From Leucoraja ocellata (taxonomy: Eukaryota), in the NCBI GenBank assembly GCA_036785375.1, contig JAWMAR010000034.1, forward strand, positions 372,001 through 436,000: a stretch of 64,000 nucleotides of DNA, read 5' to 3'. Below, one piece after another: positions 1 through 58,751 of this stretch. A model generated the notes under the pieces. The model made no database searches, had not been told where the DNA came from, and saw nothing but the letters and a program-made list of their open reading frames with translations. Every line of letters begins with the position of its first letter. Position 1 is the first letter of the stretch. Both the position numbers and the translations under genes were made by a program.

Positions 1-326
1 GAGAGTGCCCAGTGCCGACCAGTTGCCATTGCAGTGCACATGCGCAGGGCGGCCGACAATGTGCTGGCCGTGGTTGTGCGCATGTGCAGGGGGGAGGACG
101 TGCAGGCTGCAGCAATGCGCATGTGCAAGGCAGCCTGCCGTGCCGGCGGATGAGGAGCCCGGCGGCCCAGACACGGATAGCGGGGGGAGATGGGGAGAGA
201 GAGATATATAGAGAGGGGGGCGCCGCCCACAGTTGAACGGTAGGTGTCCTGCCTTGGCCGGAGGCCCCCCTGGACCTCGAGGCCCTAAGCTTAAGCTTGT
301 CTAGCTTATAGGTAAATCCGGCCCTG
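1..326. mobile_element. End of a GC-rich non-autonomous hAT-like DNA element (truncated by window edge)
   Basis: Terminates in ...GTAAATCCGGCCCTG (reverse complement of a CAGGGCCGGATT-type TIR); internal TGCGCATGTGCA motifs. Confidence 0.6.
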
Positions 327-1004: not shown

Positions 1005-4000
1005 CTACATTAAATATTCAATCATTACATTAGTTTGGGGGGCAGGGGAGAAACATACACACATGCACACGCACAGACAGCCAGTATTATTCTTGAACGA
1101 GGTAGCATGGTATCAGCACATGTGGGTTAGTAAAACAGCTTTGTTTCCATGACACCTCAAATGTAAATGAATATCTTCGGGGCATCAAACATTATGAATT
1201 GCTACGAGCAAATCTTGTCATGAAGGAAGACAAAATCGTGCTCAGATATGTGTTTTCAAAAGGGGTACAAAGGATAAGGAGGGAAAGAACTGCAGATGCT
1301 GGTTTCAATCGAAGGTAGACACAAAATGCTGCAGTAACTCAGCGGGACAGGCAGCATCTCTGGAGAGAAGGAATGGGTGACATTTCAGGTCGAGACCCTT
1401 TTTCAGACTGATGAACGATGATTAAGAGGGAACTGATCAGTACCAAAAATGGCAGGAAGTGGGCACAAATTTGTCACAAGAAGCCAGAATTGAAAATAAC
1501 ACAAGGAAAAAATCTGGAGACGACCTGACCCCTCAAGTCTGTCCCTCTATGCAATATGATTATAGCTTTAACTCCTCTTCTGTGGAGGAGTTAAGGCTAT
1601 ATGGGGACTGATGATGAGCAGAATATATCCAGGTTGGGCCTCATCAACATTCTATAACAATACTTCCCTATTTCTAAACACGTCATAAAGGCCAAATACC
1701 ATTTGTCTTTCTAACTATTAGTTGTACCAGTCTGTTACATTTTACGATTTATGCACAAGACCATTGAGATGTGGCAGGGAAATAATTGAAGCATCTTGGG
1801 GATGGTACCTGCGTTTGAAAAAGCATAAACCTATTTCGGAAAATTAGCATGGCTTTGTATGGGGGAGAATGTCTCATAAATTTGACAAAGATAATGGATG
1901 GTATCTACAGTACATGTACTTTAGCAAAGCTTCAGACAAGGTCCTCCAAGATATGTTGGTCCAGTGGATTAAGTCAAATAGGATGCACAGTGGGTTGGTA
2001 AAGGATAAGGTCACACACGCCTGCCTCCTTTGATCCAGTCGAAATAGTGCAAGCCAATTCAATCTCTCCTTATAACTTAAACCCTCCATTCCAGGCAACA
2101 TTCATGTGAAGCTGTTCTGCACCTTCTCTAGCTTTCCTATAGTGTGGTGACCAGAACTACACACAAAACCGCAAGCATAGCCTACTCACTAATTTGTACA
2201 ACTAGAACATGATATCCCACTCCTATGCTTTGGCTGATGAGGACAAGCATACTATATGCCTTCTTCACCACTTTCAGGGAACTGTACACTTGTACCCCAA
2301 GGTTTTGCTGTTCAATAACGTTCCGCAGGGACCTGCCATTCACTCCGAGCCCTGGCAGGTATAACTTGCTAAAATGCATCACTTTACATTGGTTTGTGTT
2401 AAATTCCATCTGCCATTCCCTTGTTCCCAGTTGATCTTGATGCTGCTGAAACCTTAGACGATCTACATTCTCCACAATTACACCAATTTTGATGTCATCT
2501 GTAAACATATTGCAATCTTCAAATGCAAACAGTAAAATGGCAGGACCCTTAGGAGCATTGATGTATGGAGGAATCTGGAGTCCAACTTCCTGAAAGTGGC
2601 AGTGCAATAGGATAGTGGTACAAAACTCATATGGCAGGAAAAATGTCAGGAGGTTACCTTGCGGTGGCATAAAACTTTGGTTAGGTCATACTTGTGAGTA
2701 TTGTGTACAGTTCTGGTCCCCACACCATAGAAAGGACACGGAGGCTTGAGAGAAGGTGCAAGACAGATTCGCCAGGCTGTTGTTTAGATTCAACTGTATT
2801 AACTAGAAGGAGAGGTTGGACAAACTTGGATTGTTTTTGCTGGAGCAGGGTATGAGGGGATGAGATAGAAGTATATCAAGTATAAAAGGCAGGGACTGCC
2901 TACACTAGGAAAGAGACACTTGCTATCTACCTTATATAAGCCTCATAATGTTGTGTACCTCTATCATTTCATCTCTTAGCCTCCTACACTCGAAGCTCTG
3001 TGGATAACTCAAGCCATCCATCCAGCAAAATCCTGGTAAATCATTACTGCACACTCTCCTACTTAATCACATCCTTCCTAGACTGTGGTGATCAGAGCCA
3101 CACACAATATTCCAAGTGTGGCCTAACTGACGTGTGTGCAACATGACATCCTACAGTGACAAACATCAAATATGTTGCATAGTGTTGCAAAGTCCATATA
3201 TCCTCAACACAATGTGTTCTCCCAAAGATTTCTGGTAGAGGAGAGTTATGGGTCCATATGAGATTTCTCAGTGTGGAAACAGTTACAGCAAAAGGGAATC
3301 ATCAGCATTCTTTCTTGACAAGCACCAATTAGTGTAAATTCACAAAATGTATCCAGCTGTTCCCTGTTACACCGTTAGGCCAAAGGATGAAGCCCAACAC
3401 TCGAATGAAAATACTCTGCTGACCTTTTTATCCTCCCCCCACCCTAATATTAACAAAGCCGCTTAAAAATAGCTCCGATTATTGAGAAGCTTCATCACCA
3501 CATGGATCAAGACAGTTACAGATCTGCTTTTCATCTGCAAAATATTTATGGACTGCAATGGTGGAGAACTCCATATTTTAAATTATATTTGATTAATTAA
3601 CATTCAGTAACATGACACAATGCAGGTGAAATACTTACTCAGTGGCAGGCGGCTCAGGGGCCACATGATGGCTTGGTGCTTTTATCGATCCTGATGTCTG
3701 TGTGATTAAATACTGCCATCTGTAAATGTAACAGGGAAAGATCAGTGAGAAATGGCTTTCAAAACCCAACCAGACTCAGCCTTAAATTACTAATTTTAAA
3801 GGCACAGGAAGAGACTATTCTGCTATAATTGTTCCCATCTCCTGTCCATTTTAATGTTTTTTCCAACGTTAAAATACTTATGTTAATTGGGGCTGGCAAG
3901 TCAGTCCAAAAGTCTCTAACAATGATAACACAGAACATGGAACAGTACAACACGGGAACAAGACCAACAGCTAACAATGGTACACAAAAAAGCTGGAGAA

Positions 4001-7000
4001 ACTCAGCGGGTGCAGCAGCATCTATGGAGCGAAGGAAATAGGCAACGTTTCGGGCCGAAAGCCTTCTTTAAAAAGGTTTTGGCCCGAAACGTTGCCTATT
4101 TCCTTCGCTCCATAGATGCTGCTGCACCCGCTGAGTTTCTCCAGCTTTTTTGTGTACCTTCGATTTTCCAGCATCTGCAGTTCCTTCTTAAACACAACAG
4201 CTAACAATGTTTGTGCCTGTCATTTGTAACAAACTACACATATGCATGTATGTGGTCTATATCCATCAATTCCCTGTCTATTCAGGTGTCTGTCTAAATA
4301 CCTCTTAAAATAGTTTCAACTTGTAATGCATCAATTCAAATATGATTTGTGGACAGCATTAAGTTTAGATTTTAGCAAAACCGGTCAAGAGACTGCAAAA
4401 GCACTTCAACTCCCCCTCCCATTCTGAATCCGACCTTTCTCTCCTCCATTGCCAGAGTGAGGCCCACCGTAAATTGGAGGAGCAGCACCTCATATTTTGC
4501 TTGGGTAGATTACAACCCAGTGGCATGAACATTGACTTTTCCAATGTTAGATTGTCCCTGCTTTCTCCTTTCCCCTCCCCTTCCCAGCTCTCCCACAGCC
4601 CACTTTGTCTCCACCTCTTCCTTTCTTCTTCCCGCCCCCCCCCCCCACCCCGACATCAGTCTGAAGAAGGGTCTCAACCTGAAACGTCGCCCATTTCCTT
4701 CGCTCCATAGATGCTGCCTCACCCGCTGAGTTTCTCCGGCATTTTTGTCTACTCTCAAAACATACTGTCTACTTATTTAAAAGTTAAAGCCCTGTCCCAT
4801 GGTACGAGTTCATTCCAAGAGCTCTCCCGAGTTTAAAAAAAAATCAAACTCGTGGTAAGCACGGAGAATGAACGTAGCGGGTACGTCGGAGCTCGGCTCA
4901 TAGCGCTAACGGTAGGTACTCAGGAAGACTCGTTAATGGCAGGTAAGCTCGGAAAGACGAGTGGCCATTACCGTAAATCTCCGAGTTCGAATCAATTCAT
5001 GCGAGTACAGGCCCAGCGATGTCAATTATATGACTGGGCCTGTACTCACATGAATTTAGAAGGATGATGGGGGACCTCATCGAGACTTACTGAATTGTGA
5101 AATCTGTGAAGATGTTTCCACCAGTAGCAGAGTCTAGGACCAGAGGTCATAGCCTCAGAATTAAAGGACGTTCCTTAAAGCAGATCAAGAATTTTTTTAG
5201 TCAGGGGGTGGTGAATCTGTGGAATTCTTTACCACAGATGGCTGTGGAGGCCAAGGTAATTAATATTTTTTAAGGCAGAGATAGATTGATTCTAGATTAG
5301 TATGGGTGTCAGAGGTTATGGGTAGAAGGCAGGAGAATGGGGATAGAAGGGAGAGATAATCAGTCATGCTTGAATGGCGGCAGACTTGATGGGCCGAATG
5401 GCCTGATTCTGCTCCTATCACATGACCATATGAATCCTGAAGTTACTGCTATTGAGATATGTATACAATTATGGATACGCCCCACAAATCCAGATTCTGC
5501 ACTTTCATTGCAAATTCCTCCCTATTTGCCCGGTCATCAAATCTGTTACTAAAAAATAAAATTTATTCCCACAATCTCAGGTTTCCAACTTTATTACATG
5601 GACCTACGTTTTCCGTTCAGACACTGTCTGGGCCACCAACTCGTAGATCTGTGCACCATCAGCTGACATTGAGATGACGAAGAAAGCTTTGTTATCTGAA
5701 AATGGCAAAACTTGATCATTAGTGAACAAACTGGAGTTCTCTGGAGTTCCACGGTTCACTATGGGTTTCGGCCCGAAACGTTGCCCATTTCCTTCGCTCC
5801 ATAGATGCTGCTGCACCCGCCGAGTTTCTCCAGCACTTTTGTCTACCTTCACTATATCTATTTCCTAGCAGCAAAAATCTGAACCGTACATTCCTATGCC
5901 CTAACACTTTCAGCTGCTTATGCCTGCTCAGCATTCAATTTATCAAGGCTGATCCATATGCAAATTAGATCTATCTACCCGCCTCCATTATCTTATATAC
6001 CAGCAGTTAACCAACTTTCTGGCAATTTCAAACCCCCAGGCCTAGTAGTTGTTCAAGGGATAGAAATCTAGATTTCTATTAGCATTTGTATCAAGTGGTT
6101 GCTCACATCAGCAGAGCAGATCTGGTTGCCCTTTGTTGTGGGCACCAACTACTGCTGTGAGTTGCTCCCCACAACCCAAAAAAGGAAACAATTTCTGTTT
6201 ACCAGATCAAATCCTTTAACCGTAAACCCCATAAACAGATTAGGCTTTAATCTTCAACACTTACAAGAATACCAGTGTAGTCTCACAATCAGACTGAGAA
6301 TAGGCGTTCCATGGTCACATCTGGATGACAGCATGCAGCCAAGATATCACACCACTCGGCCAGTGCTGAATGACTAACATCCACAAAGATACTGCACTCT
6401 CAGATGCATTGCTTCTGGCTACCCTTTTCATCTCCTCATCCTTGACTTGTAATTTTTAAATTTCTTTCCACCCAGTACCAGCTGATTGCTATTCTGGAAG
6501 CAACTAACCTGTTGCAACTTCTCGCACAAGCACAGCAGAGAGTTTGATGATGGGGCTGAAGGTGTGTTTGGTATCAGCATTGGCAGCAAGATTCTTACTG
6601 TGACACTTCAACACCAACCGTTCATCCTGCTTCTGAGATAGAACCAAGATGTCTTCCAACAGAAGTGTGTAGAGATCTATGTAGATAGGAAAGGGCAGGT
6701 AGAGTAAGTATCCATAACGTAATGCACATTGAGAACTACTGGACTGCTTTATGTGAATTATAAAATTATAGGAAAATGCAAAGATTCTCAGGAAGCTAAT
6801 TTCCATGAGTAAAGGTTAGATTCCATGCTGAAACAGCTTCCCAGCATTTAAAGGCAAACTGGTAAATCTAGTTCAACGTCCAAGTTCACCTTAGAAAATG
6901 GACAGTGTCCAGGACCACTGTTTAATGACATTGCAAACCATGAAACACAATTCACAAACCAATACCAAGGGAATGTTTGTGGAAAAATCAGTTTCTTTCT

Positions 7001-10000
7001 GATGCTATGGTCAGTAGAGTGATTCAACGCAGGCCAAGAGCTTTGTAAAATGTCCAGGATCACATCTTAAAGGTGAACTCTGAACAGAGCTTGGTGTAAG
7101 CCCTGCCAACATTTTCCTAACAACTTATAGCTCCAGTGAGCACTGAACACAGCATCTGAGGCCGTTTACCCGTTCACATTGATCAACTTACCATTCTCAT
7201 AAAAAATCATTAAAAAAGGCACCTCTGTACTGTGGAGAGGTTGTATAGGAAGGAACTGCAGATGCTGGTTTACACCAAAGATAGACACAAAATGCTGGAG
7301 TAACTCAGCGGGAGAGGCAGCATCTCAAGTGAGAGGGAATAGGTGATGTTTCGGGTAGAGTCAAAGAAGAGCCTCAACCCGAAACGTCACCCCATTCCAT
7401 CTCTCCAGAGATGCTGCCTGTCTCGCTGACTTACTCCAGCATTTTGTGTCTGTGGAAGGGTTGCCTTTCTGCAAAAAATGTTTGCAGTGATTTTCCAACA
7501 TCTGTTGCTTACTTTGCATTTTGTGTTTAGTTACAGTATTTTTCTTCCTCAACACAAGTTCTGGAAGTGCAATGTGAATTCCCATGACCCAAACTGCAAT
7601 AAGGTGTAGGTGCACTCTATGGGTATGTGGTTAAAGCTCCAACTCCTACAACATCAATGACCAAATACAAGAAAATAAAGAACCAATATCACTAGTACTA
7701 GACAGCCAGGATTCCCTGCACTGTAGAGAGCATCCAGTTGTCAGATATTTGTACTACTGCAAAAATAAGAACCAATACCATGAATCGCAGGCAATAATCA
7801 CATTTATAAATAGCTTAGATACAAACTGCTGCATCAACACATGAGAGAATAAGTAATCCTACTGGCTGATACACAAGAAAGACTCACCCATTACAAATAT
7901 CCAAAGGACTGAAATTCATAAAAGAATAATCCAAACACTAAATTCCATTTAAAAATACAAGAACTAGAACTGATAAGTATGTACCCAACATACAAGATCC
8001 TGAGCTGTAACCACCCTTCTCCGAAACAAGAACCCTATACATTATAACAGAGACACGACTCCTTTTCTGTAAATACTGGACAGATGGAACCTTGCACTGA
8101 ACTACCATAGATAATGAAAAAAAGTAAATACAGAGATAAGATCCAGCAACGTAAATACTCTAAACATAATCCTGTATAGTAAGCATCTAAGTCAGAAACT
8201 TCCACTACCAATTGATGGAGCAGGAACATTCATAAATACCTGAAACCACAAACATCCCAAAGAGATATTTGTCCGACAGAAGTAATGCAGTATTCTAGTT
8301 TACAACATGGCAGCAATAAAGGTAATAAGAATCATTTTTCACTTGACATCTGAATACTTTCCAAAATATATTCTGGTGTCTGGGGTGTAGTGATCAGGAA
8401 ACAATGTCCAATACAAACTTCCAGCAGTATACGGATGAGAGGTTCCTGCCTATTTTTCAAATGATTTCAATCTTCAAAAACTGCACTTGCCACCATGTTC
8501 TGAGGGAGCTCTTTACTCACCGATTGTCTTATCTTTATTCACCCGCCAAGTCAGAGGCCCTTCATGAATCATGATCCGTTTTGTAAGGTCCAGACTCTTA
8601 AATTGGGAGATACAGAAAAAACAAATTGTGCTAAATGCAAAAATGGGTCTCTGCAATGTTTTATTAATCATTTCTCATCTGAACTTTAATAATGCCGGCC
8701 TTTTCATATTTTTCCCATTAAATAACTCACCCGGAACTCCTCAATCAGTGGATAATCTGACTGCTTCAGGCCAGACAGGTCCAGGCGGCGCTGATAATCT
8801 TCCAACCGCTGACATAAGGAAAGAACCCATTAACTTTCACAAGAAAATACTGGGCAAATCACAGAACAGAAAGCATCTTGACTAGCTGATGTCCCCAACT
8901 CTTACCCTTGATGTTTCAATGATAGCCTTTGGCTCGTTGATAAGCGTGAAGCTTTATGAAGCTCACTATACCACACCATTTCCCTTTGGCTCTGGAACCA
9001 ATTGTCTAACTCAGTAACCCCGCTGTCAATGCATACTGTTTCTGGCGTGTCCAAATAATACAGTCATAAAACAGGTGGAGGTCGGAAGGTAGAGAATGTG
9101 ATTTGAAATAAATTAACGGAGGCAAACTAGCTTCAAAAAATTTTTTGATTTTTGTATGAGGAAATACTGTTCACTGTCTTGAACATAACAAGCCTTGGTT
9201 ATTTTTCTTTCCAATCCCTTAACCTGTCTGAGTGAATGTTGATGCCAGTCAATGAAAACCAAGGGCTGATACTGATGCAAAGTCATAGCAAATAGTGGCA
9301 ATGAATAGGGAAGAAGCAGCTGGACTCATCTGACATCAGTGCACTATTTGTGCCTTTCATAAAATCCATTTGCAACCAAAAAATATACTTTAAATAATAT
9401 ATGGGATTGATATCGAGAACTTTTCATATATATTGTACAAGAGTAAAGAAAGGGATGTACATACTGTGCAAACGTTCAAACACAAAATCTACCATGTTTT
9501 AAAGGCAAGGATCAATGCCGAGTCTTCCCCACTCAAACCAACGTATCTGTGTGGCATGGTAGGGGTTCATGCATAGAGTCCTCACCTCAAACACTCACCT
9601 GCTTATTTTCAGCTTCCTTTACAGCCTGGTTCACAAAGTTCAGGATCTGACGGCAGCATTCCGCTGCCTGTTTTACCTTTTTCTTCTCATCGTGCTGTTC
9701 TGGATCTAAGAATAAGACCAATTGTCACTTTAAATAAATTTGTTTTATCTCTCTCCAGAGAAAACCGTACAAACTTCATGAAAACACTTGTAAAATGAAA
9801 TATTAAGCCTGTTTTTGGCATTATGGTTTATTTATGTGCAATTATTGGAGGATCTTTTATCAAACACAGCAGAACTAGAAGAGCTTCTTTAGTTTAGAGA
9901 TACAGCGCGGAAACAGACCCTTCAGCCCATCGAGTCCGCACCGACCAGCGATGCTCGCACATTAACCTTAGCCTACACACACTAGGGACAATTTACACTT

Positions 10001-16000: not shown

Positions 16001-19000
16001 GTGGTTCCCGGTGAGATATACAAGCCATCAGATCCTTCAAGTCCTGATCCAGTTGATCAGATGTGCTTCGCTCTGCAGCTGCTTTGCTAAATTGATCACA
16101 GAAAATTACTCACTTCTCTGACTCTCGGTCCTCCTCCATCACCTGATCGAGGGTGGATAGCTCGAAGGCTGACTTTGGTGTAGAAGTGCTGGAATCCCCA
16201 ATGAATAAGTTGTCTGCTAACATCTTCAATGTCGCAGGTGTTGCAGGAGCAGAATCTGAGAAGGATAGAGGCAATTAGAGAGAAAGAATCATGTATACAT
16301 CCGAGAACATTCTGCTGCTATTCCCCCATCATTTCTCACACTCATTTTTTAATGTTGACATGCTCCGTTTCAATCACACCCGTGAAAGGAGAGAAACAGT
16401 GATGCAGAGCAAGAGAGCCAAATGAGAAAGGGAGAGGGAGAGGTGTGGACTGGGGTAGAGTAGGGGGTGAGCAAAGCCCAAATTGGTTAATAGGACAGGA
16501 AAGGGCAGTGGGAGGGTAACGTGACAAAAACTGGAAAAGAGAGTGGAGGGGAAATGAGAGAGGGTGAGAAAAGGAGGGAGAATGAGTAGTATGGAGCAGA
16601 GAGAGGGAAGATGATCGATAAAAGCAGAGACAACAACTTATGACAATAGTCATCACATACAAATTATTTTGTGTTGGGTGCTGGATACAATTCATTGCAC
16701 TGCATTTCCCGGGTACCTGTTTCGCTCTCTGAGATCCCATCATGAACAACGTTGGCCGACGCTGGACCTGATGAGCCGGTCACCGCTGACTGATCGCTTC
16801 CCTCGCTGAAGAATGGAATAGATTTTGACCTCTCGCTGTGGTCAGAGTGAGAAGCAGATCGGCTATATGGTCCCATTTGCCTCTGATGCAGTAACTTGGC
16901 CTTTTCAACTAAACAAAGATGTCACAGATCAGTCTCCTGATGCTTTGATCCTACATTTAATAAAGAATAGCCAAATAGCGCACTGCACGTCCAAGTCCCA
17001 CTTACTCGCGTTGCGATCCTGTTTGCTTGTGCGCCGGATGGGGTCCAGGATGCTCTGGAAACGTTTCCTTTTCTCATCATCTTTCACAGTCTCCTTTTCT
17101 TTCTTTACACTTGGCTGTTGGTAGTGCAATGATTAAAGGCAGAATAAGACCACAGGTAGAATTACGCCCCAACTGATAACACCAGAAGTGGACAACTAAT
17201 CAGCACATCGGCTAAACTGCCAATTAAGTCTGCAGCATTCACAATTCTTACTGCTCTCAAAAGCCCGGAGAGAACATCTTTACTCACCATCCCAAACTGA
17301 AACCAATTAAAAATGCCAGCTCTTCTCCTCCATGAAAACCTGATAGTCTACATCACAAAACACCCACCCCAACGTTAAATTTCTCATCAATTTAGAACTG
17401 AACGGATCTCACTTTTCCATTCTTATTACTAACTTCGGTATCACAGCACTGCAACCAATTTGATTCACTCCAGGGAATATCGAGAAATAGCTGGATCCAG
17501 CACTAGCCATGGTCCCAACAATATCCTGGTTGTATACTCTAGAATTAATAGCACCTCTATCCAAATCAGGCACGTGCCTTCAGGGTAGGGAAGGTAGGCA
17601 CTGCCTACCCTGACTAAAATTATAAAATGATAATTATTAAATATAAATAGTAAAGGCACGGGAGAATTATGCATACCTAAGAGATCGATCTCTGAGGCAG
17701 GCATAATTATCCGTGCCTTTCATCCTACAGCAGTACGTGTAATACAGGAAAGTGGGTGCAGCCCACGTGCCCTAGTCGCTGCTTCAATCCGTCAATTTCA
17801 AACAGAGCTGAAGGCAGCTGAAATTCTGCCTTTGCAGCGTGACTGTGTACTGAGTATGCGCAGCGCAAGTGGGAAGCGGACAGCGCCGCTGTGGGGGGGG
17901 GGGGTTGCGGGAGGGCAGGAGCATTGAGAAGGAGGGGGTCGGAGATCATGCCAGAGCAACCAGCTCAAGAGCAGGTCAGCGGGCGATGGATAACAGGACA
18001 GCGGGCGGTGGAGCTTACTCCATGTGTCAGTGCAAGTAACCTCAATTGGTCCCTTGTTCGCGCTGACACAGGAGTTTCCACTGCCCGCTGTCCTGTTATC
18101 CATAGCTCCGCTCTATGATCTTTGCTCTTGAGCTGGTCCCCTCACTGTTCAAAAGGAGAGCACTGCCAGAGGCGAGCGGGCCGGCAGAAGGCGCTGAGGT
18201 CCGGCGGCCGCTCACAGCCACCCGAGCTACCTCCCTCCCCGGCCACAATGCTGTGGCTCAGCGCCCGGAGAGCCGCGGCAGCAGTGAGTGAGTCGCTGGC
18301 ATGATCCCCGACTCCCTCCTTCTCAACGCTCCTGCCCTCCCCGCAACTTTACCCCTGGCTAGACTCACTACACGCTCTGAAAGGAACTCTCCCCCCAATT
18401 GGTTCCTTGAACTAGTATTGTCATTCAATAAGATCGCAACTGATTTAACTTGTCCTGGTGCACTCCCGTTTTTCCCCACCATCTCTTCACCTGCCATCAC
18501 GCTCCACCCATTCAATAATTCAGAATGAAGGAGATTTGGAAGCCTTGGGCAAATTGAATTGTTACTTTCTTTATTTTTATTCTTTATTTTTACGGAGAGG
18601 AGAACAATCTGCACATGCGCGGTTTAAGAATTTTTAAAAGCCGACTGACTGCCTACCCCGAGTAATTACTCACGGCATGTGCCTGATCCAAATGCTATAG
18701 ACACATACCTTCTTCTTTGGGAAGAATGCAACTCGTAACCTGCGATCTCTGTCCAGGTTCCTCGAATCCTTCACTTTCACGCCAAGCTGCTTCATATAGA
18801 TGAGAATCACATCCGCAACCGAATTACTGCCACAGAAAGAGAGAGTGGGAATGCAACTCAAATTTCACTGTACCTTAGTTGGTTAAGTGACAATAAATAC
18901 AAACTTGAACTTGAAGAGTCTACTGTTTGCCAGGAAAAATATCACTGCTCAAAGAGGAAGGACAGACATTTTTGAGCGCCAGGAAAAGGGCTGTTTATTA

Positions 19001-40000: not shown

Positions 40001-43000
40001 GTGGGTAGAAAGGCAAGGCCATGCTGTAGCACAAGCACAAGTTTTTCTGAGCCAGGAGCGTTTGGCCAGGTTTAAACAAGAAGAAAGGGTTACAAACAGT
40101 AACTGGTTTTGATCAACCAGGAAAGGACTTAAAAAAAATAAAGCACAATATAAATAGAACCAGGATTAGGCCCTATAGCTTATCAAGCGTGCTCTGCTAC
40201 CAATAAACAGCCACAAGAACTCCACATCCCAACACATACAAGACTTGTTCATGTTATGAAATGCCACCAAGTACACTTGACGTTTTCCCCTTGGAGTCCA
40301 GTGATTTGACATTGTAAACATGTTTGGAGACTGAACTTAATGTCCCAAAAGCAAGTCTGGCCAAAAAATATACTACATCTGGAACACAGAGGTTCTGTGG
40401 GCTCAGCAAGGGAGATGGGTGATTGAAACACATCCTCTATTCCAACCCACTGTAAGATAGCAAAGCAGCTTCGCACACAACAAGCACATAGAATCAGTCA
40501 GTGGCACCAAGCAAGCTGACAGCCAGCAAAGCAGACTAGTTAGTGCACAGATTAACAGGACTCACATTTATGGTCATTGCAATTGAACCTGGGCTTCTTT
40601 TGTTTAGACGAGCTCTCTGCATAACAGCAGAAAAAGAGAAGGGTGGGGAGAGGGTGGGGTGGGGGCAAGGAGATGTATGGAAACATGTAGATTCACTACT
40701 CATAGAAAATGGTATATAAATACACACACATATCAACACAAAATTGGAAAATTTTGTACAGACTCAATATATACAAGAGGAACTATGACACAAATTAGGT
40801 TAATGTGTAACGTGATGGGTTAAGAAATGGAATTAATTGTTTTGACAAAAAGCTGGTAGCATAATTAACACATTGATGTAACACAGGAGACCATCCCCCC
40901 CCCCCCCCCCCCCCCCCCAATGGTACCAACATACCATGCAGTTATGTTCCGATATGATTTAGTCACATCAAATGGGCCAGCTCAATACTAATTCCCCGAG
41001 TTATACAACAGTTTTCTGGATAAATTAGCTATGGAATGCAGATTTGTGAACTCACAAGAATGTCATGACTGCACAAAGCAGGAGTAGACAGTCAATTGCA
41101 AGCACCGAGCAAACCATTCAGAAAGGCAGCCAGATCAATACGAGTGGTGGGAACCCGGGACCTACCGCATAGCTCTTGTCCATCAGAAGACTCCATTGGT
41201 ATTCCAGCAATTCAAACTACATTTGGGAAATGATGACTTTATCTTGCTTTTCAAAACCCGACATCTCAGATTGTGAAGTCAACATTAACTATTTGATATT
41301 TTTGGTCAACAGCCTGAACCAAGATGGAACAGTTTACTGAGCAAATGCGCTCAGCCATTCTTCTCTAAATGACATGGAGAAAAAGCCTTCTCCATTTCTC
41401 CTTCCCTTATCATTTCTCTTTCTACCATATCATTTCCAGCCTGTCTGCCTCAGTAAAGCTTTTTAGGCCAAGTTAACTTTTGGCCTGAAAAGAAAATTCT
41501 AACTTTCCTCTGAATCCCATCCCCACTATCATTGACCCTTGGAATACTAGATGCTGTTTGCATCCAGAGCCCCAGAAATGTAAGTGCACTTCACATAAGT
41601 CAGTCAGTCTGAGACTGCTTCTATAACAAATTTTGTAACAGCCTGCAGGTGCAGAGAAAACCCAAGGGAAGTGGCCTAATAGATACATCCACATTCCACC
41701 CTAGCTCAGAACTATTCCCTCCAGCAGTGAAACACCAAACATTGCCAGCACTCTGACCCGTTTGTTGAAAAATAATGATCCATCCAGGAGGGTCTGCAAG
41801 CTACCTAACCAGTTTATTCACTAAGCATTAAAGCAGTGTGGTAGAATGTATTCGTCAACTCGCTCACTCTCCTGTTGATCAAAAAAGTGCCTGAATCTAC
41901 TGTGGATGAGCATTAAGGTAATGTAAACCATGACTTATCAGTAAGAAGGCAGCAAATGAAAGAGTCCAATGTGTACATAGACACAAAAAGCTGGAGTAAC
42001 TCAGCAGGACAGGCAGCATCTCTGGAGAGAAGGAATGGGTGACGCTTTGGGTCGAGACCCTTCTTCTTGACCTGAAACTTCACCCATTCCTTCTATCCAG
42101 GGATACTGCCTGTCCTGCTGAGCTACTTCAGGTGTTTGTGTATCTTTGGTTTAAACCAGCATCTGCAGTTCCTTTCTACACAGTCTAATGTTTGTGACCA
42201 AAGTCTAACCATTTGAAGCCTGGAACTGAAAACGGCTCAAAGACTCTACAAATGTATTACCTGTTGGGTCAAATTCATACAGAGATGATTTTTCCAAGTT
42301 TTTTTTGTCATACTTTTTATCAGGCGACAGGTCCTTGTTCAGTATGCTTCCTTGCCTGTAATAAAGAACAGTTCACATTTTGACAATCCAACCGCAGCAC
42401 AGATATACAACATACCTAGTACTTATTCAGCTTTACATAACCTGCACCCCTTGTTCCAGCTTTTGTTCTGAGGCATATCACACATTCTTCCTGTGTACTG
42501 GGGAATCACCCACATTCAAACTGACACCAACATCCCTCTCTTATCTTTGCAACAAACTGAGACAGCTGCCAGGGAGTGGCTCAGAAACGACACAGAGTGC
42601 AAGCAACAAAGGTTGTAACCAATGTCTTTCATTTTGCCAGTATAGAGGATACATTTGAAGACATAAGATTGCAGAAGCTAGAATCTAAAACAAAAGAAAA
42701 AACAGGGTGCTGGACAAATTCAGCAAGTCAAGCAGCCCTTTGGAGACAAAACATGAAAGCTGACATTTTGGTCAGAACTGGGAGGGGAGAAGAGAAATTA
42801 CCAATGTATAGCAGTACAGGTGGGTGGGGGTGGATAGAGGATGGTAGGCGATAGGTGGAAACAGATGGGATGGGGGGGGGGGGGGGGAGGTGGGCAGTTG
42901 AAGGGTGGATGGAACTATACGGAGGGTGAAGAGGGGGAGGGAAGAGATGAACAAAAGTGAAAAGAAAGCTAGGTGGACAGGTGAAAGTTCATGTTCTAGG

Positions 43001-53679: not shown

Positions 53680-54528
53680 AAAGGGTTCCTGCCCCCTAGT
53701 CCTTACCTTTCACCACATCAGCCATCACATAATTCATGACATTTACGCCACCTCCAACGGGATCCCGCCACTAATCACATCTTTCCATCGCCACCCCATT
53801 CCGCCTTCCAGGGACCGTTCTCTCCACAACTCCCTGGTTAACTCATCAGTTCCCACCCGAACCACCCCCTCCCCAGGTTCCTTCTCCTGCAAAACCGGTC
53901 CCTATACTTCCTCCCTTGACTGTCCAGGGACCCTGACCGTCCTTTCAGGTTAGGCAGAGGTTCACTTGCACGTCCTCCAACCTCATCTACTGTATCCGTT
54001 GTTCAAGATGTGGACTCTTACACATCGGCGAGACCAAACATAGACTGGGCAATCATTTCAGCTGAATACCTTGGCGCAGCCCGCCAGAACCTACCTGATC
54101 TCCCGGTTGCTAAGCACTCATTTCCCTTCCCACCACACTGACCTTTCTGCCCTAGGAGTCCTCCATTGCCAGAGTGAGGCCAAATGCAAATTAGAGGAAC
54201 AGCATCTCATACATTGGGCAGTTTACAACCCAGGGGTATGAATATTGATTTCTCTAACTTCAAGTAACCCCTGCATTCCCTCTCTCCCCATCCAAGTCAC
54301 ACCAGCTTTTCGTTCTCACCTAGCAAACAGTTTCCTTTATCATTGTTACTTTTTTGTATATCTTTCATTCATTTGTTGTATATCTCTCTCTCTACATCAT
54401 CGTCTGTATCTCTCGTTTTCCTTTCCTGTGACTTTCAGTCTGAAGAAAGGTCTCAACCCGAAACGTTACCCATTCCTTCCCTCCAGAAATGCTGCCTGTC
54501 CCACTGAGTTACTCCAGCATTTTGTGTC
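53680..54528 (+). mobile_element. Penelope-like element 3' part (GIY-YIG remnant plus terminal repeat)
   Basis: Frameshifted RFTCTSSNLIYCIRCSRCGLLHIGETK (GIY-YIG), KLEEQHLI...QPRGMN, then CTGAAGA...GAAACGTT at 54440. Confidence 0.88.
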
Positions 54529-56569
54529 TTCGGTTCATGGTTCAGTTCAGTTTATGCATTTTCCATTTCAGTGATAGTTGGTGAAACACTTGATGCAGAA
54601 TTAACCAGGATTCTACTGTTACTTGGGGAGAGCAGGGAGTGCAACAGCAGGATCTGAGAAAAAGCAAATATGGAGGAAATTTATAGACCATGCGAGAAGA
54701 AATAAAATGAGAAAAATGGAAGAGATGAGAGAGCAAACTTAGCTACTTTGATAAGTTGCAGAAAGTGCAAACAACTAAGTGAGGGCATCACAGTGTTACC
54801 GATGCAAATAAGAAACTTGAAAATGTTCTTTAGCCACTTGTCTGCTAGCAATCAATCATCATTCTCTGTCTTTATTCCATAACCCTCATTGCAAAATGGC
54901 TGGTTCTGTAGAAAAATACTTCAGTGGACATGAAAATACCAGTAGCGCCCGCAGTGTAACCTCAGTTTTCCTCTCCACAGATGCTACCTGGCATGTCGAG
55001 TGCCTCCAGCATTTATTCTAGTAGTCTTTTGTCCACTAGCTTGAGGCCGCCTCTATACATAAATTCCCAAATCACTCGCTCTTCGACAGGTTCTTATTTT
55101 TGGATTAGAAGAGAACAAAACGAGACAAATAGTCCAAAAAAAATGGATAGTCATGAAAAACAAAGGAAAGCAGGTAATAGGAAGAGATGGAAGATAAATG
55201 AAACAAATTACCAAAGATTATAAAACTAAATGCAAAATTAAAAAATGCATATTTCAGAATAGTGAAAATCATTCAATTTTTATTTTATGAGATGTCGTCT
55301 AGTGTGGTTTCTTCCCCCACTCCTCCCATTGCAGCCCCACCTTGTCTGGAATATTCTATCTCTTGCGTCTTGAAAATACATGTAATTACTCTGCCTTTCT
55401 ACCAAATCTTACTCCAGGCAACTCTCACATTAAAATTGTTAGAAGTGAATCATTTATTATAAACCACACTGCCATAATCAACATACACCATGTTGAAGTA
55501 AAGGCTATTTTGTGTTACTGGAAAAGATAATTACATTTGCTCATCAAGAAAAGGATTCAAATCTCGATGCTCCTGCAAATCAAAGGAAGTGGAATAACAT
55601 GGAACGAGTGATCAACAATTGGCATGGACCCAATTAGCCGAAGGGTCTGTTTCTTCAATGGTATGAATTAGTAACTCTGTTAGAAATGGCAGTTCATGGG
55701 GTAATGATACAGTGGGGTGGTGGGAGTGGGCTAAATGAAGAAGCAAAAGCATGTAATGCAAAGCCCCCTCACAGGTCACATCCAATTTTTCAAGAGCGGC
55801 AAACTGCAATTTATCCCATTACTCCAAAGGGCTTATCAACCGTTCCCAAATGCAGTGACTTGTAGAACTTGTTACCAGTCTCCACAACAAACTTTCAAGA
55901 GGCAAGAACGTTTAATTATCATACGTGCCAAAGCAGGATAACATTCTTAAGGTTTGCTGGACATTCAACCACCAGAAAGTACCAAATCACAGGAACAAAC
56001 AAACCATCCCACCTCTGTCGTTGTGATTTATTTTACCTTGTTCACAAATACTCTCCACATCAACTGCATGGACTAAACCTGGAGAAATCTATTTGAAACT
56101 CAGAATATCCTGAGATTTAAAATTTAGTTAACCAAGCAAAATTTGAATAAAGAAGCAAAATTAGCTGTGCTAGTCATAAAACTGTCAGATTATATGAAGA
56201 CGCAGTGCTTCTGCTTTCCTTACTCAGTAAGAATTATCCGTGAATGCGATCCGCACTAATGCGGTTCATTCACCTGTCTTTTCAAAAGGGCCTAACAGTT
56301 GTTTAAGAAGGAACTGCAGATGCTGGAAAATCGTGTATCAAGTCACAACAAGAATAAAACAGGTAACCTACTGGCCATTGCACCTTAATTCTCAAATACG
56401 ATAAAAGCACTCGCAGCACAGGCAACATCGAAAACCTCTCTCCACCAACAACGAATAACATGCCAAGACTGCAGAAACAGGCCCATGGCCTCAATAACCT
56501 GCTGCAGGATACAGGGAAAGAGACAGGACGATTTGTTTCCCTTATTTGAGGAAAAGTAGAGTTGAGTTT

Positions 56570-57029: not shown

Positions 57030-58328
57030 TAAGCGAGTTCGTTATTCCGACTAGGCATGCCCAGGTAACTTGTCATAAACATTGTTGGTAGCTGAGCAGC
57101 TAAACCTTCGTTTCATCCGTATTTTCCAGCTTTGATTCTTTTAGGTAAGAAAAATACTGCTTTCAAACTATGAATTAGTTGTATTCATTGTTCCTTTGTA
57201 CAAAGCTACAATGATTTTGTCATTTTTATTATTTTATGCTTCAGTGAGTGAGCGAGATCACGCTGCAGCGTGGGGTCGAGGTTCGGCCTGGGTCTCCGGC
57301 GCTGTTGAGTTGCTGCTGGGCCGTCCCCATCCCCTCCCGGGTGTCCCGTCCCTGTCCAGGTGCGGCCGGAGGTGTCCAGGGTGGCCCTTGGCTGGCGGGG
57401 GCTGGCTCCAGCTGGGCTCTGCTCTGACTCCCTGGGGCCCTGTTTCCTGGAGGGCCATGGACCATCGGCTGCGCCTCTCTCCTTGTCCAGTGGCTGTCAG
57501 TTAACCCCCTCGGTGCCGGCGAAAGCCGAGCACCAGTCATCAATGGGAATACACACAAAATGCTGGGGTAACTCAGCGGGACAGGCAGCATCTTCGGAGA
57601 AAAAGAATAGGTGACGTTTCGATCGAGACACTTCTCCGGAGATGTTGCCTGACCCGCTGAGTTACTGCAGCATTTTGTGTGTATCCCCGTTGATGAATGA
57701 ATGGTGCTCGGCATTCGCTGGCACTGAGGGTGTTAACCGACAGCCACTGGACAAGGCGAGAGGTGCAGCTGAAGGTCCCCGCCCCGTCGGGGAACGGGTT
57801 CCTCTGGAGTTGGAGCCGAGCCGAGCTGGAGTTGGCGAATCTTCTCCACGCTGGCTGCAAGGCTGGGGTCGCCACTGCTCCGGGCCAGTATCCTGTCAGT
57901 CCAGGGTCACCTCGGACACCTCCGGCCGCCCCGACAGGGATGGGACACTCGGGAGGGGAAGGAGACCGCTCACAAATCTGCGTCCTGGGGTTGTGCAGGA
58001 GAGGGGTGCGTGGTTTGCCCCTGTATAATAACCCTGTATAACCCAGGAGGGCAGCCAGAGTGAGAATGGAACTCATGCACCCAGGCTGAGGGGGACCGAA
58101 CTGTGATTCATTAGATTGTCACTGCTGAGATTTCTGCATGGACCAGTGGACAAGGGAGAAATAGTGTCGCTCACTCCAGTAGCAATTCAACAGCGCTTGC
58201 AGTGCCGTTCAATCCTGACTACGGATGAAACGCAGGTCTGTACACACACAGCAGCTCAGCTGCAACAAATGTGTTTCTCGAGTGACCTATGATCTGAGCA
58301 TGCGCAGTCGGAAGACCAAACTCGCTTA
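57030..58328. mobile_element. Unclassified non-autonomous foldback DNA element (1299 bp), about 100-bp TIRs, 5-bp TSD TACGA
   Basis: TIRs 57030-57121 / 58220-58328 (start TAAGCGAGTT; 29 of the first 35 nt match); tacga at 57025-57029 and 58329-58333; internal inverted repeat of about 630 bp. Confidence 0.8.
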
Positions 58329-58333
58329 TACGA

Positions 58334-58515
58334 GCCCTCGAGCTGTCTCCTCCCCTCCCCCAGCCCTCGGGCTCCTCCTCCCCTTTTTTTCTCTTCCTTC
58401 TCCCTGCCACCCCCTATCAGTCTGAAGAAGGGTTTCGGCCCGAAACGTCACCCATTTCCTTCGCTCCATAGATGCTGCTGCACCCGCTGAGTTTCTCCAG
58501 CATTTTTGTGTACCT
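58334..58515 (+). mobile_element. PLE terminal-repeat insertion with 12-bp TSD
   Basis: tcgcttatacga at 58322-58333 and 58516-58527; intact CTGAAGA-A-GGGT(TTCG)GCCC-GAAACGTC. Confidence 0.85.
58419..58453 (+). ncRNA. Putative minimal type I hammerhead ribozyme motif (PLE-associated)
   Basis: CUGAAGA core, extra A, helix II GGGU/GCCC closed by UUCG, GAAA, palindromic ACGU minimal helix III, GUC site; helix I only about 2 bp. Confidence 0.55.
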
Positions 58516-58751
58516 TCGCTTATACGACTTCCTGATTCTTAAACTCAATACCCCGACCAATATATGGCAAGCATGCTATGTGTTTTTTAATGACACTATC
58601 TAGAGATTGTGGCCAAAGGGCCAGCTCCTGTGAGATACCATTTTATGTCTATGATAATATGTACGTAATCATACCTGCCAGTGATGCTAATCTTCAATCA
58701 ATTCTAATCACCACACAATCTAAAGTGAGGCTAAACACAATACAGCAGGGC

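Follow-up and report, generated by a model that had tools for sequence, protein, structure and literature searches.

A putative minimal type I hammerhead carried by the terminal repeat of a probable autonomous Neptune-type Penelope-like element of the skate Leucoraja ocellata, and a clustered ribozyme-less cassette among its copies

The window analysed in this study, a stretch of 64,000 nt from the genome of L. ocellata, carries at 58334..58515 a 182 bp insertion of a Penelope-like element (PLE) on the + strand, bounded by a 12 bp target-site duplication (TSD), of which the left copy (58322..58333) is identical to the right copy (58516..58527). The insertion is 5'-truncated, has neither an ORF nor a tail, and matches the terminal repeat (pLTR) of an ORF-bearing copy at 95 %. 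With offsets counted from hammerhead residue C3 (window 58422 = 0), it spans −88 to +93. It opens with the pyrimidine-rich 3' UTR of the element, which lies between the ORF stop and the hammerhead (58334..58416), is common to ORF-bearing copies and varies between subfamilies. The next five bases, −5 to −1 (58417..58421), were identified by hazard analysis as the hot spot for 5' boundaries in the pLTR family, and the final two of them form the 5' strand of helix I. The whole minimal hammerhead occupies 58419-58453, inside the pLTR; its catalytic box C3–A9 is followed by an extra A between positions 9 and 10.1 (58422..58429), then by a helix II of 4 bp with a UUCG loop and a G10.1–C11.1 pair (58430..58441), which in isolation is predicted to be out-competed. 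The GAAA box, a palindromic ACGU that could form helix III only as a dimer, and C17 follow (58442..58449), with a predicted cut after 58449, and helix I is completed by its 3' strand of 2 bp (58450..58451). The remaining pLTR (58452..58515) extends to +93, the first of two 3' end points used by the family. All of these features are on the + strand.

The same succession of CUGAAGA, an extra A, helix II, GAAA, CGU and a variable base starts on the + strand at 58422, 4661 and 54440. An earlier note on this DNA, made from the sequence alone, had described three near-intact copies; the core is present at all three positions, but those at 4661 and 54440 have decayed, the former showing a G–U at the first pair of helix II and the latter an A–C at that pair and a terminal triplet GUU. 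Both belong to older copies on the + strand in which a GIY-YIG remnant precedes the repeat, as had been observed: 4393..4752 comprises a GIY-YIG remnant, 3' UTR and hammerhead, and 53681..54535 a linker/GIY-YIG remnant, 3' UTR and hammerhead. The family is indeed the most repeated short sequence in the window, where 19 copies were counted. Four head-to-head fold-back insertions were also seen (3979-4194, 7249-7449, 41981-42174 and 57550-57683); the first belongs to the young subfamily and has both cores broken, and the last is enclosed by a larger G+C-rich inverted repeat (57317-57972). Rfam miRNA hits at 3979-4194 were rejected as spurious, their source being the fold-back insertion, and a long hairpin at 17904-18137 with weak miRNA-model hits lies outside the PLE family. 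A covariance-model search, which the earlier note had proposed as a check, returned 16 Rfam hits in the window at E≤10, with no hammerhead family among them.

Minimal type I hammerheads were described in the pLTRs of metazoan PLEs by Cervera and De la Pena in 2014 (PMC4209133). By the features listed there, the sequence supports assignment of the focal motif to this class: CUGANGA and GAAA boxes enclose helix II, an NUH triplet follows, and the extra base between 9 and 10.1, the G10.1–C11.1 pair and the palindromic helix III positions (15.1/15.2-16.1/16.2) are all present. This bears out the suggestion of a PLE-type minimal hammerhead with an extra base after A9, and C17, the predicted cut, is located at 58449, at the end of the GUC after which cleavage had been expected. 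The published PLE hammerheads likewise lie in both pLTRs and are mostly dispersed single copies from truncated elements, and helix I is 2 bp here and in D. virilis, compared with 4-5 bp in Schistosoma (PMC4209133). The focal motif is thus a further member of an already known class, to which it adds one more host. One searched supplement file of PMC4209133 contained no shark or skate terms, and a preprint (10.64898/2026.07.22.740005), in which one chondrichthyan genome is covered, may list related arrays. Our literature search for chondrichthyan hammerheads found no paper. Chondrichthyan motifs may already be listed by Lunse et al. 2017.

Genome-wide, the 20-base core pattern had 96,210 exact matches and the reversed control pattern had 0, so the core is not a product of chance. 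This figure of ~96,000 exact cores compares with the 2,000-9,000 given in PMC4209133. A search of viral contigs for the core gave 0 matches. Copies were further sampled with nothing but their 3' flank as the probe, in 120 stretches of 10 kb that were drawn from fixed positions along large contigs; 433 were found, which extrapolates to ~1.2 million in the genome, and the 423 with full context were analysed. Their 3' ends were bimodal, with 198 at +85..99, 163 at +117..129, 14 between and 48 shorter, and the two end points ~35 nt apart are the PLE tail. Head-to-head pairs numbered 81 among the 423.

The carrier was examined in loci with long open frames. Two of the 20 such loci, L036 and L039, are intact partial tandems: a core flanks the ORF on either side, the two cores being 3.9 kb apart, and the upstream copy is 98.9 % (L036) and 97.0 % (L039) identical to the 3' end. 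The open frame of L036 is 1202 aa long and includes RT motifs, a CX2-5CXXC linker and a GIY-YIG domain; relative to L039, this locus has a small deletion just after the ATG. In full elements 117 nt separate the ORF stop from the core, and the next ATG comes 164 nt beyond the core. A total of 93 scored RT-EN matches reached ≥90 % identity. The Pfam scores for RT and GIY-YIG in the ORF were under the curated cut-offs, and relatives 40-55 % identical carry both domains; a PDB sequence search with the ORF gave 0 hits. The CX2-5CXXC linker, at residue 1069 of P0002, points to the Neptune or Nematis clade (PMC8557442), a label that rests on the linker motif and not on a tree. EN+ PLEs of the Neptune/Nematis type (PMC8557442, PMC3846280) share with the skate element the RT, the Zn-finger-like linker and the C-terminal GIY-YIG, as well as partial tandems, an inverted 5'-truncated copy, an optional tail of 30-40 bp and a TSD, all of which were present here. 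The skate element differs from them in its long low-complexity N-terminal part (~1,200 aa in total) and in the sharp 5' boundary of its family at the hammerhead edge. The N-terminal extension (L036:3806-5200) is Pro/Ser-rich and reaches ~300-400 aa beyond most of 120 listed relatives. The youngest subfamily (L036:3629-3760) has gained a palindrome over helix II and the GAAA box that is predicted to mask the core. We therefore regard it as probable that the motif is a hammerhead of the minimal type I class, carried by the terminal repeat of a Neptune-type PLE that is autonomous, and that the focal copy is a 5'-truncated insertion whose template was likely uncut RNA; by itself this copy is predicted to be inactive.

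The start points of the copies bear on the template. Moving 5', the hazard of ending per nucleotide was 0.004-0.023 from +42 to +1 and 0.006-0.010 at the cut site, and reached up to 0.21 between 0 and −6, a value to be read as an upper estimate because some 'unique-flank' copies retain 10-25 nt of upstream element. Among the 219 copies reaching C3, 103 had unshared flanks, 51 were inverted and 65 had common upstream sequence, which was true 3' UTR in 50 of the 65; a TSD of ≥9 bp was found in 22 of the 103 unshared-flank copies, 7 of those ending at −7..−2. In short direct dimers (n=677) the second unit mostly starts at −5..−1 among the first 100 listed, and 10 of the first 100 very short dimers listed (n=327) join at the cut site, by hand count no excess over neighbouring positions. 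Since copies begin just before the motif rather than where the RNA would be cut, their templates were likely uncut RNA, with a 5' end that we infer at about −5..−2. The RT of the element would start inside this RNA at about +93 or +128 and run off its 5' end, which likely sits at an initiator-like site just before the core; we take the bases at 58417..58421 (−5 to −1) to fit the initiator consensus. Internal starts and 5' run-off would together account for the million stumps and the fold-back junctions, and also for a helix I of 2 bp. A motif resembling an initiator has been noted in a pLTR before (PMC3846280), and the anole Poseidon element PAc (PMC11167929) is similar in having two internal RT start points that define the tail and in using uncut RNA as template, with no RNA-seq ends at the cut site. 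The ORF of PAc starts inside the hammerhead, whereas the ATG of the skate element is 164 nt downstream.

RNA reads from four runs, covering poly(A) and single-cell libraries, showed no pile-up of starts or ends anywhere on the element, and their depth was dominated by embedded short copies. Two RNA joints back to −1/−3 were considered as splices and rejected; they have no GT donor and are read as microhomology junctions. The single-cell reads lay mostly on one element strand (L036:3300-4300), for which internal priming on A-rich stretches could account. Family-wide, the bases around the 5' boundary (window 58417-58425) form an interrupted palindrome; 634 perfect fold-backs, evenly spread, have this palindrome at their centre, and it is likely an inversion hot spot.

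With regard to function, helix I is 2 bp in 24 of the 34 copies that keep upstream element sequence, and its third pair is an A–C mismatch in 31 of the 34. A check of helix I and II for two-sided covariation, also proposed in the earlier note, found none in this genome; the changes in helix I were one-sided only and did not exceed shuffles, 301 of 2000 of which reached the observed value. Between subfamilies, the changes at paired positions were U–A to U–G at two places. The variation in helix II on which the note relied does keep pairing, but it is a one-sided change (U–A to U–G) and not a compensatory one. Conservation of the core above the flanking repeat, a further point raised in the note, was non-significant over six subfamily consensuses (1/11 variable core columns versus 19/63 in the 3' flank, p=0.27), the sole variable core column being a CpG in one cluster of 11. 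The 3' UTR adjoining the core upstream differs widely between subfamilies, to the point of being unalignable, while the core is unchanged. A lower mismatch in the core than in the flank of dispersed copies (0.049 vs 0.070) was rejected as a sign of selection, because alignment through the core had been a condition for picking the copies, and because the flank value is inflated by hidden subfamilies. The folding models used here, which ignore tertiary contacts and protein help, assigned helix II a probability of 0 in the focal copy, where competing hairpins are predicted, of ≤0.01 in four of the six consensuses, and of 0.21 and 0.55 in two older consensuses. They placed the double-hammerhead dimer fold 20.8-21.7 kcal/mol above the best fold, compared with 12.6-17.9 for five invertebrate-type comparators. 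The evidence for hammerhead activity in this genome is weak, and these predictions suggest that the focal hammerhead is probably inert at its site.

The same 20-nt core was found in at least 123 metagenome loci, whose flanks have no similarity to the skate family and in which a GIY-YIG end lies within 250 bp in 30 of the 123 listed. Across the 84 distinct cases among the listed matches, helix I covaries, with a mean of 3.45 bp versus 1.56 in shuffles, of which 0/2000 reached the observed value. Because an identical core covaries at helix I in these loci, the hammerhead architecture is real. The metagenome copies (L121-L243) end in GUU in 43/127 and in GUA in 8/127. Many PLE families in host DNA of these metagenome contigs carry the identical core. 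In the skate, selection on the core would have acted in master elements and not on the dispersed copies, and any cleavage would need a dimer and likely the protein of the element, by analogy with the protein-assisted hammerhead cleavage described for the anole PLE (PMC11167929).

Other readings of the repeat and its boundary were weighed against this evidence. The sharp 5' edge could be a 3' splice site of the kind known from D. virilis Penelope, with splicing supplying a longer helix I; in all subfamilies the core does follow a pyrimidine tract that ends in AG (at −3/−2), and the D. virilis intron ends at helix I (PMC4209133). However, the 103 boundary copies have unshared flanks and so no common first exon, positions −5 to −3 are enriched in boundary copies although they would be intronic, and none of the 15 joints listed of 109 is a GT..AG skip. 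This reading fits the data worse than run-off at a transcript 5' end, and we consider it very unlikely. It is a good deal more plausible, if short of an even chance, that the ribozyme is vestigial even in master elements and that the core persists because of some overlapping function, for instance as an internal promoter or as a site where protein binds, a view compatible with most of the explanation preferred here. Consistent with it are the 2-bp helix I in every subfamily, the very low helix II probabilities predicted for most consensuses, the GUU triplet and U–G first pair of the youngest family, the spread of a derivative without the catalytic core, and in vitro hammerhead mutants that showed no loss of insertion (PMC11167929). 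Set against these, every between-subfamily change at paired sites retains pairing, the core stayed constant beside a 3' UTR that became unalignable, GUU is frequent in the comparators (29/84 listed distinct cases), and the active D. virilis Penelope also has a 2-bp helix I (PMC4209133). The earlier note had suggested a hammerhead-bearing, retrozyme-like non-autonomous derivative of the PLE; on this model it would cut itself, circularise and be mobilised by the PLE. The merits of the model are the core, intact in 100 of the 219 sampled copies that reach C3, the existence of the 677 short direct dimers and of 44-bp pure-hammerhead arrays, and a preprint that derives vertebrate retrozymes from pLTRs (10.64898/2026.07.22.740005), an origin shared by metazoan non-LTR retrozymes (PMC7229834). 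Retrozymes have canonical hammerheads, units of 150-450 bp and circles (PMC7229834; 10.64898/2026.07.22.740005), whereas the skate bulk family is dispersed; in it we found neither tandem arrays of 150-450-bp units, nor a canonical hammerhead with a 6-bp helix I, nor boundaries set by the cut site, which instead correspond to RT start points and the −5..−1 site. Tandems are rare (head-to-tail pairs spaced by 117-147 bp number 579, and the 423 copies include 33 same-strand neighbours that lie within 400 bp), all 6 subfamily clusters include members with the element 3' UTR (2-22 each), and the predicted energy gap of the double-hammerhead fold exceeds that of the comparators. A retrozyme origin for the short repeat is therefore most improbable; the bulk family is not a retrozyme, and its source is an autonomous element with long open frames, whose pLTR it represents. 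A true non-autonomous derivative appears to exist elsewhere in the genome, with a shared centre that has lost the catalytic CUGA box.

This ribozyme-less cassette, clustered in megabase domains, is new here; our literature searches, of limited coverage, found no description of such a cassette for PLEs. Its fold-back centre has 1,878 copies genome-wide and joins arms that start at +8 and +5, so that neither arm keeps the CUGA box. It is absent from the 64-kb window. The domain pattern rests on the first 100 matches listed per search, with domains of 2-4 Mb: 40 of the 100 fell in contig C1 at 20.1-22.5 Mb, 0 in C2-C4, 47 in C5 at 14.3-18.2 Mb and 10 in C6 at 17.1-19.5 Mb, and on the four largest contigs (C1-C4) 40/40 of these matches lay within 2.4 of 95.6 Mb. 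In comparison, the control centre of 634 copies was evenly spread, with 19 on C1-C4 vs 17.6 expected. A junction marker for the C1 variant had 44 of its 75 matches in C1 at 20.1-22.0 Mb. The centre was seen in 9/38 pLTR loci in the domains vs 0/449, a contrast inflated by the choice of stretches inside domains. Loci were examined on C1 (L378-L400) and C5 (L401-L403). Segmental duplication was rejected as the main cause of the clustering, as 17 of 20 C1 cassette loci have unshared outer flanks; three pairs share flanks, and 14 loci carry the junction marker, with the loop oriented one way in 8 and the other way in 6. Between C1 loci, the 210-bp inner part has a mean identity of 94 % and the flanking 66-bp units 98.5 %. 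In at least 10 composites an old decayed pLTR copy supplies the outer ends, with its start, 3' UTR or tail, and the cassette enters this copy in register within +20..+85 without a fresh duplication. No RNA-editing scar was detected: of the 114 changes counted across 46 centres, 2 were A>G and 0 were T>C.

The variants of the cassette are domain-specific and include 66-bp arrays and 44-bp pure-hammerhead arrays. The latter, found when searching tandems, repeat a unit of hammerhead only (−3..+40) up to ~11 times, and most share the single +8/+5 fold-back centre. One of their junctions has 136 copies, with 99 of the first 100 listed in G000:C33 at 6.1-9.8 Mb and, by a stricter pattern, 9/12 on C33. 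The array loci there (6.1-10.9 Mb; L345-L362, L371 and L373) lie inside fold-back insertions. The arrays represent separate insertions, with their own 11-17-bp duplication in 8/12 tested and differing tail variants. They agree with the rule of the preprint of two or more successive units bearing a hammerhead, but are shorter than its 51-bp minimum and are housed in fold-back insertions (10.64898/2026.07.22.740005).

The simplest reading of the cassette is likely homology-directed copying into nearby resident pLTR copies, for which the mechanism may be passive conversion, the re-integration of circles after their excision, or action of the PLE endonuclease and RT. Distance-limited spread is known from non-allelic gene conversion between dispersed repeats and from DNA transposons that hop locally, and the cassette resembles these in its range and in its entry through homology. 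It differs in that resident copies at many sites gained a whole palindromic cassette of 100-300 bp, whose variants are domain-specific. That ordinary, unbiased gene conversion or local duplication acted among a million similar repeats, in the absence of drive and of any part played by a PLE protein, comes not far below an even chance: the entry points are in shared sequence, the composites lack fresh TSDs, the editing scar is absent and three pairs of C1 loci share flanks. This is countered by the unshared outer flanks of the other loci (17/20), by the amplification of the same centre in several separate domains, by the unclustered control centre, and by the nature of the gain, which is an insertion of non-homologous sequence and not a swap of point variants. 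The clustering may also be an assembly error, although locus-specific decay speaks against this. We tentatively propose, as a reading somewhat more doubtful than it is probable, that the cassette is a local homing element, copied into resident pLTRs within a few Mb, in register and in either orientation, possibly via PLE endonuclease cuts and a template of nascent RNA or nearby DNA. Such a homing cassette would be a parasite of the retrotransposon's dead copies, spreading by proximity and carrying passengers such as the 44-bp arrays.

In summary, the stump edges of this family form a record of where the template RNA started, at the ribozyme edge and not at the cut site, which predicts a transcription start and lends in vivo support to the in vitro result that PLEs, when copying, start internally on uncut RNA. 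For a cleavage assay, the 44-bp arrays offer natural dimer substrates. The expectation for retrotransposon copies is that they scatter and afterwards decay independently; if the reading of the cassette is true, its entry into neighbouring dead copies would represent a directional, proximity-limited transfer of sequence among repeats. If a PLE protein drives the cassette, this would point to nuclear action on nascent RNA and to a route by which the still unexplained retention of introns in PLEs might arise.
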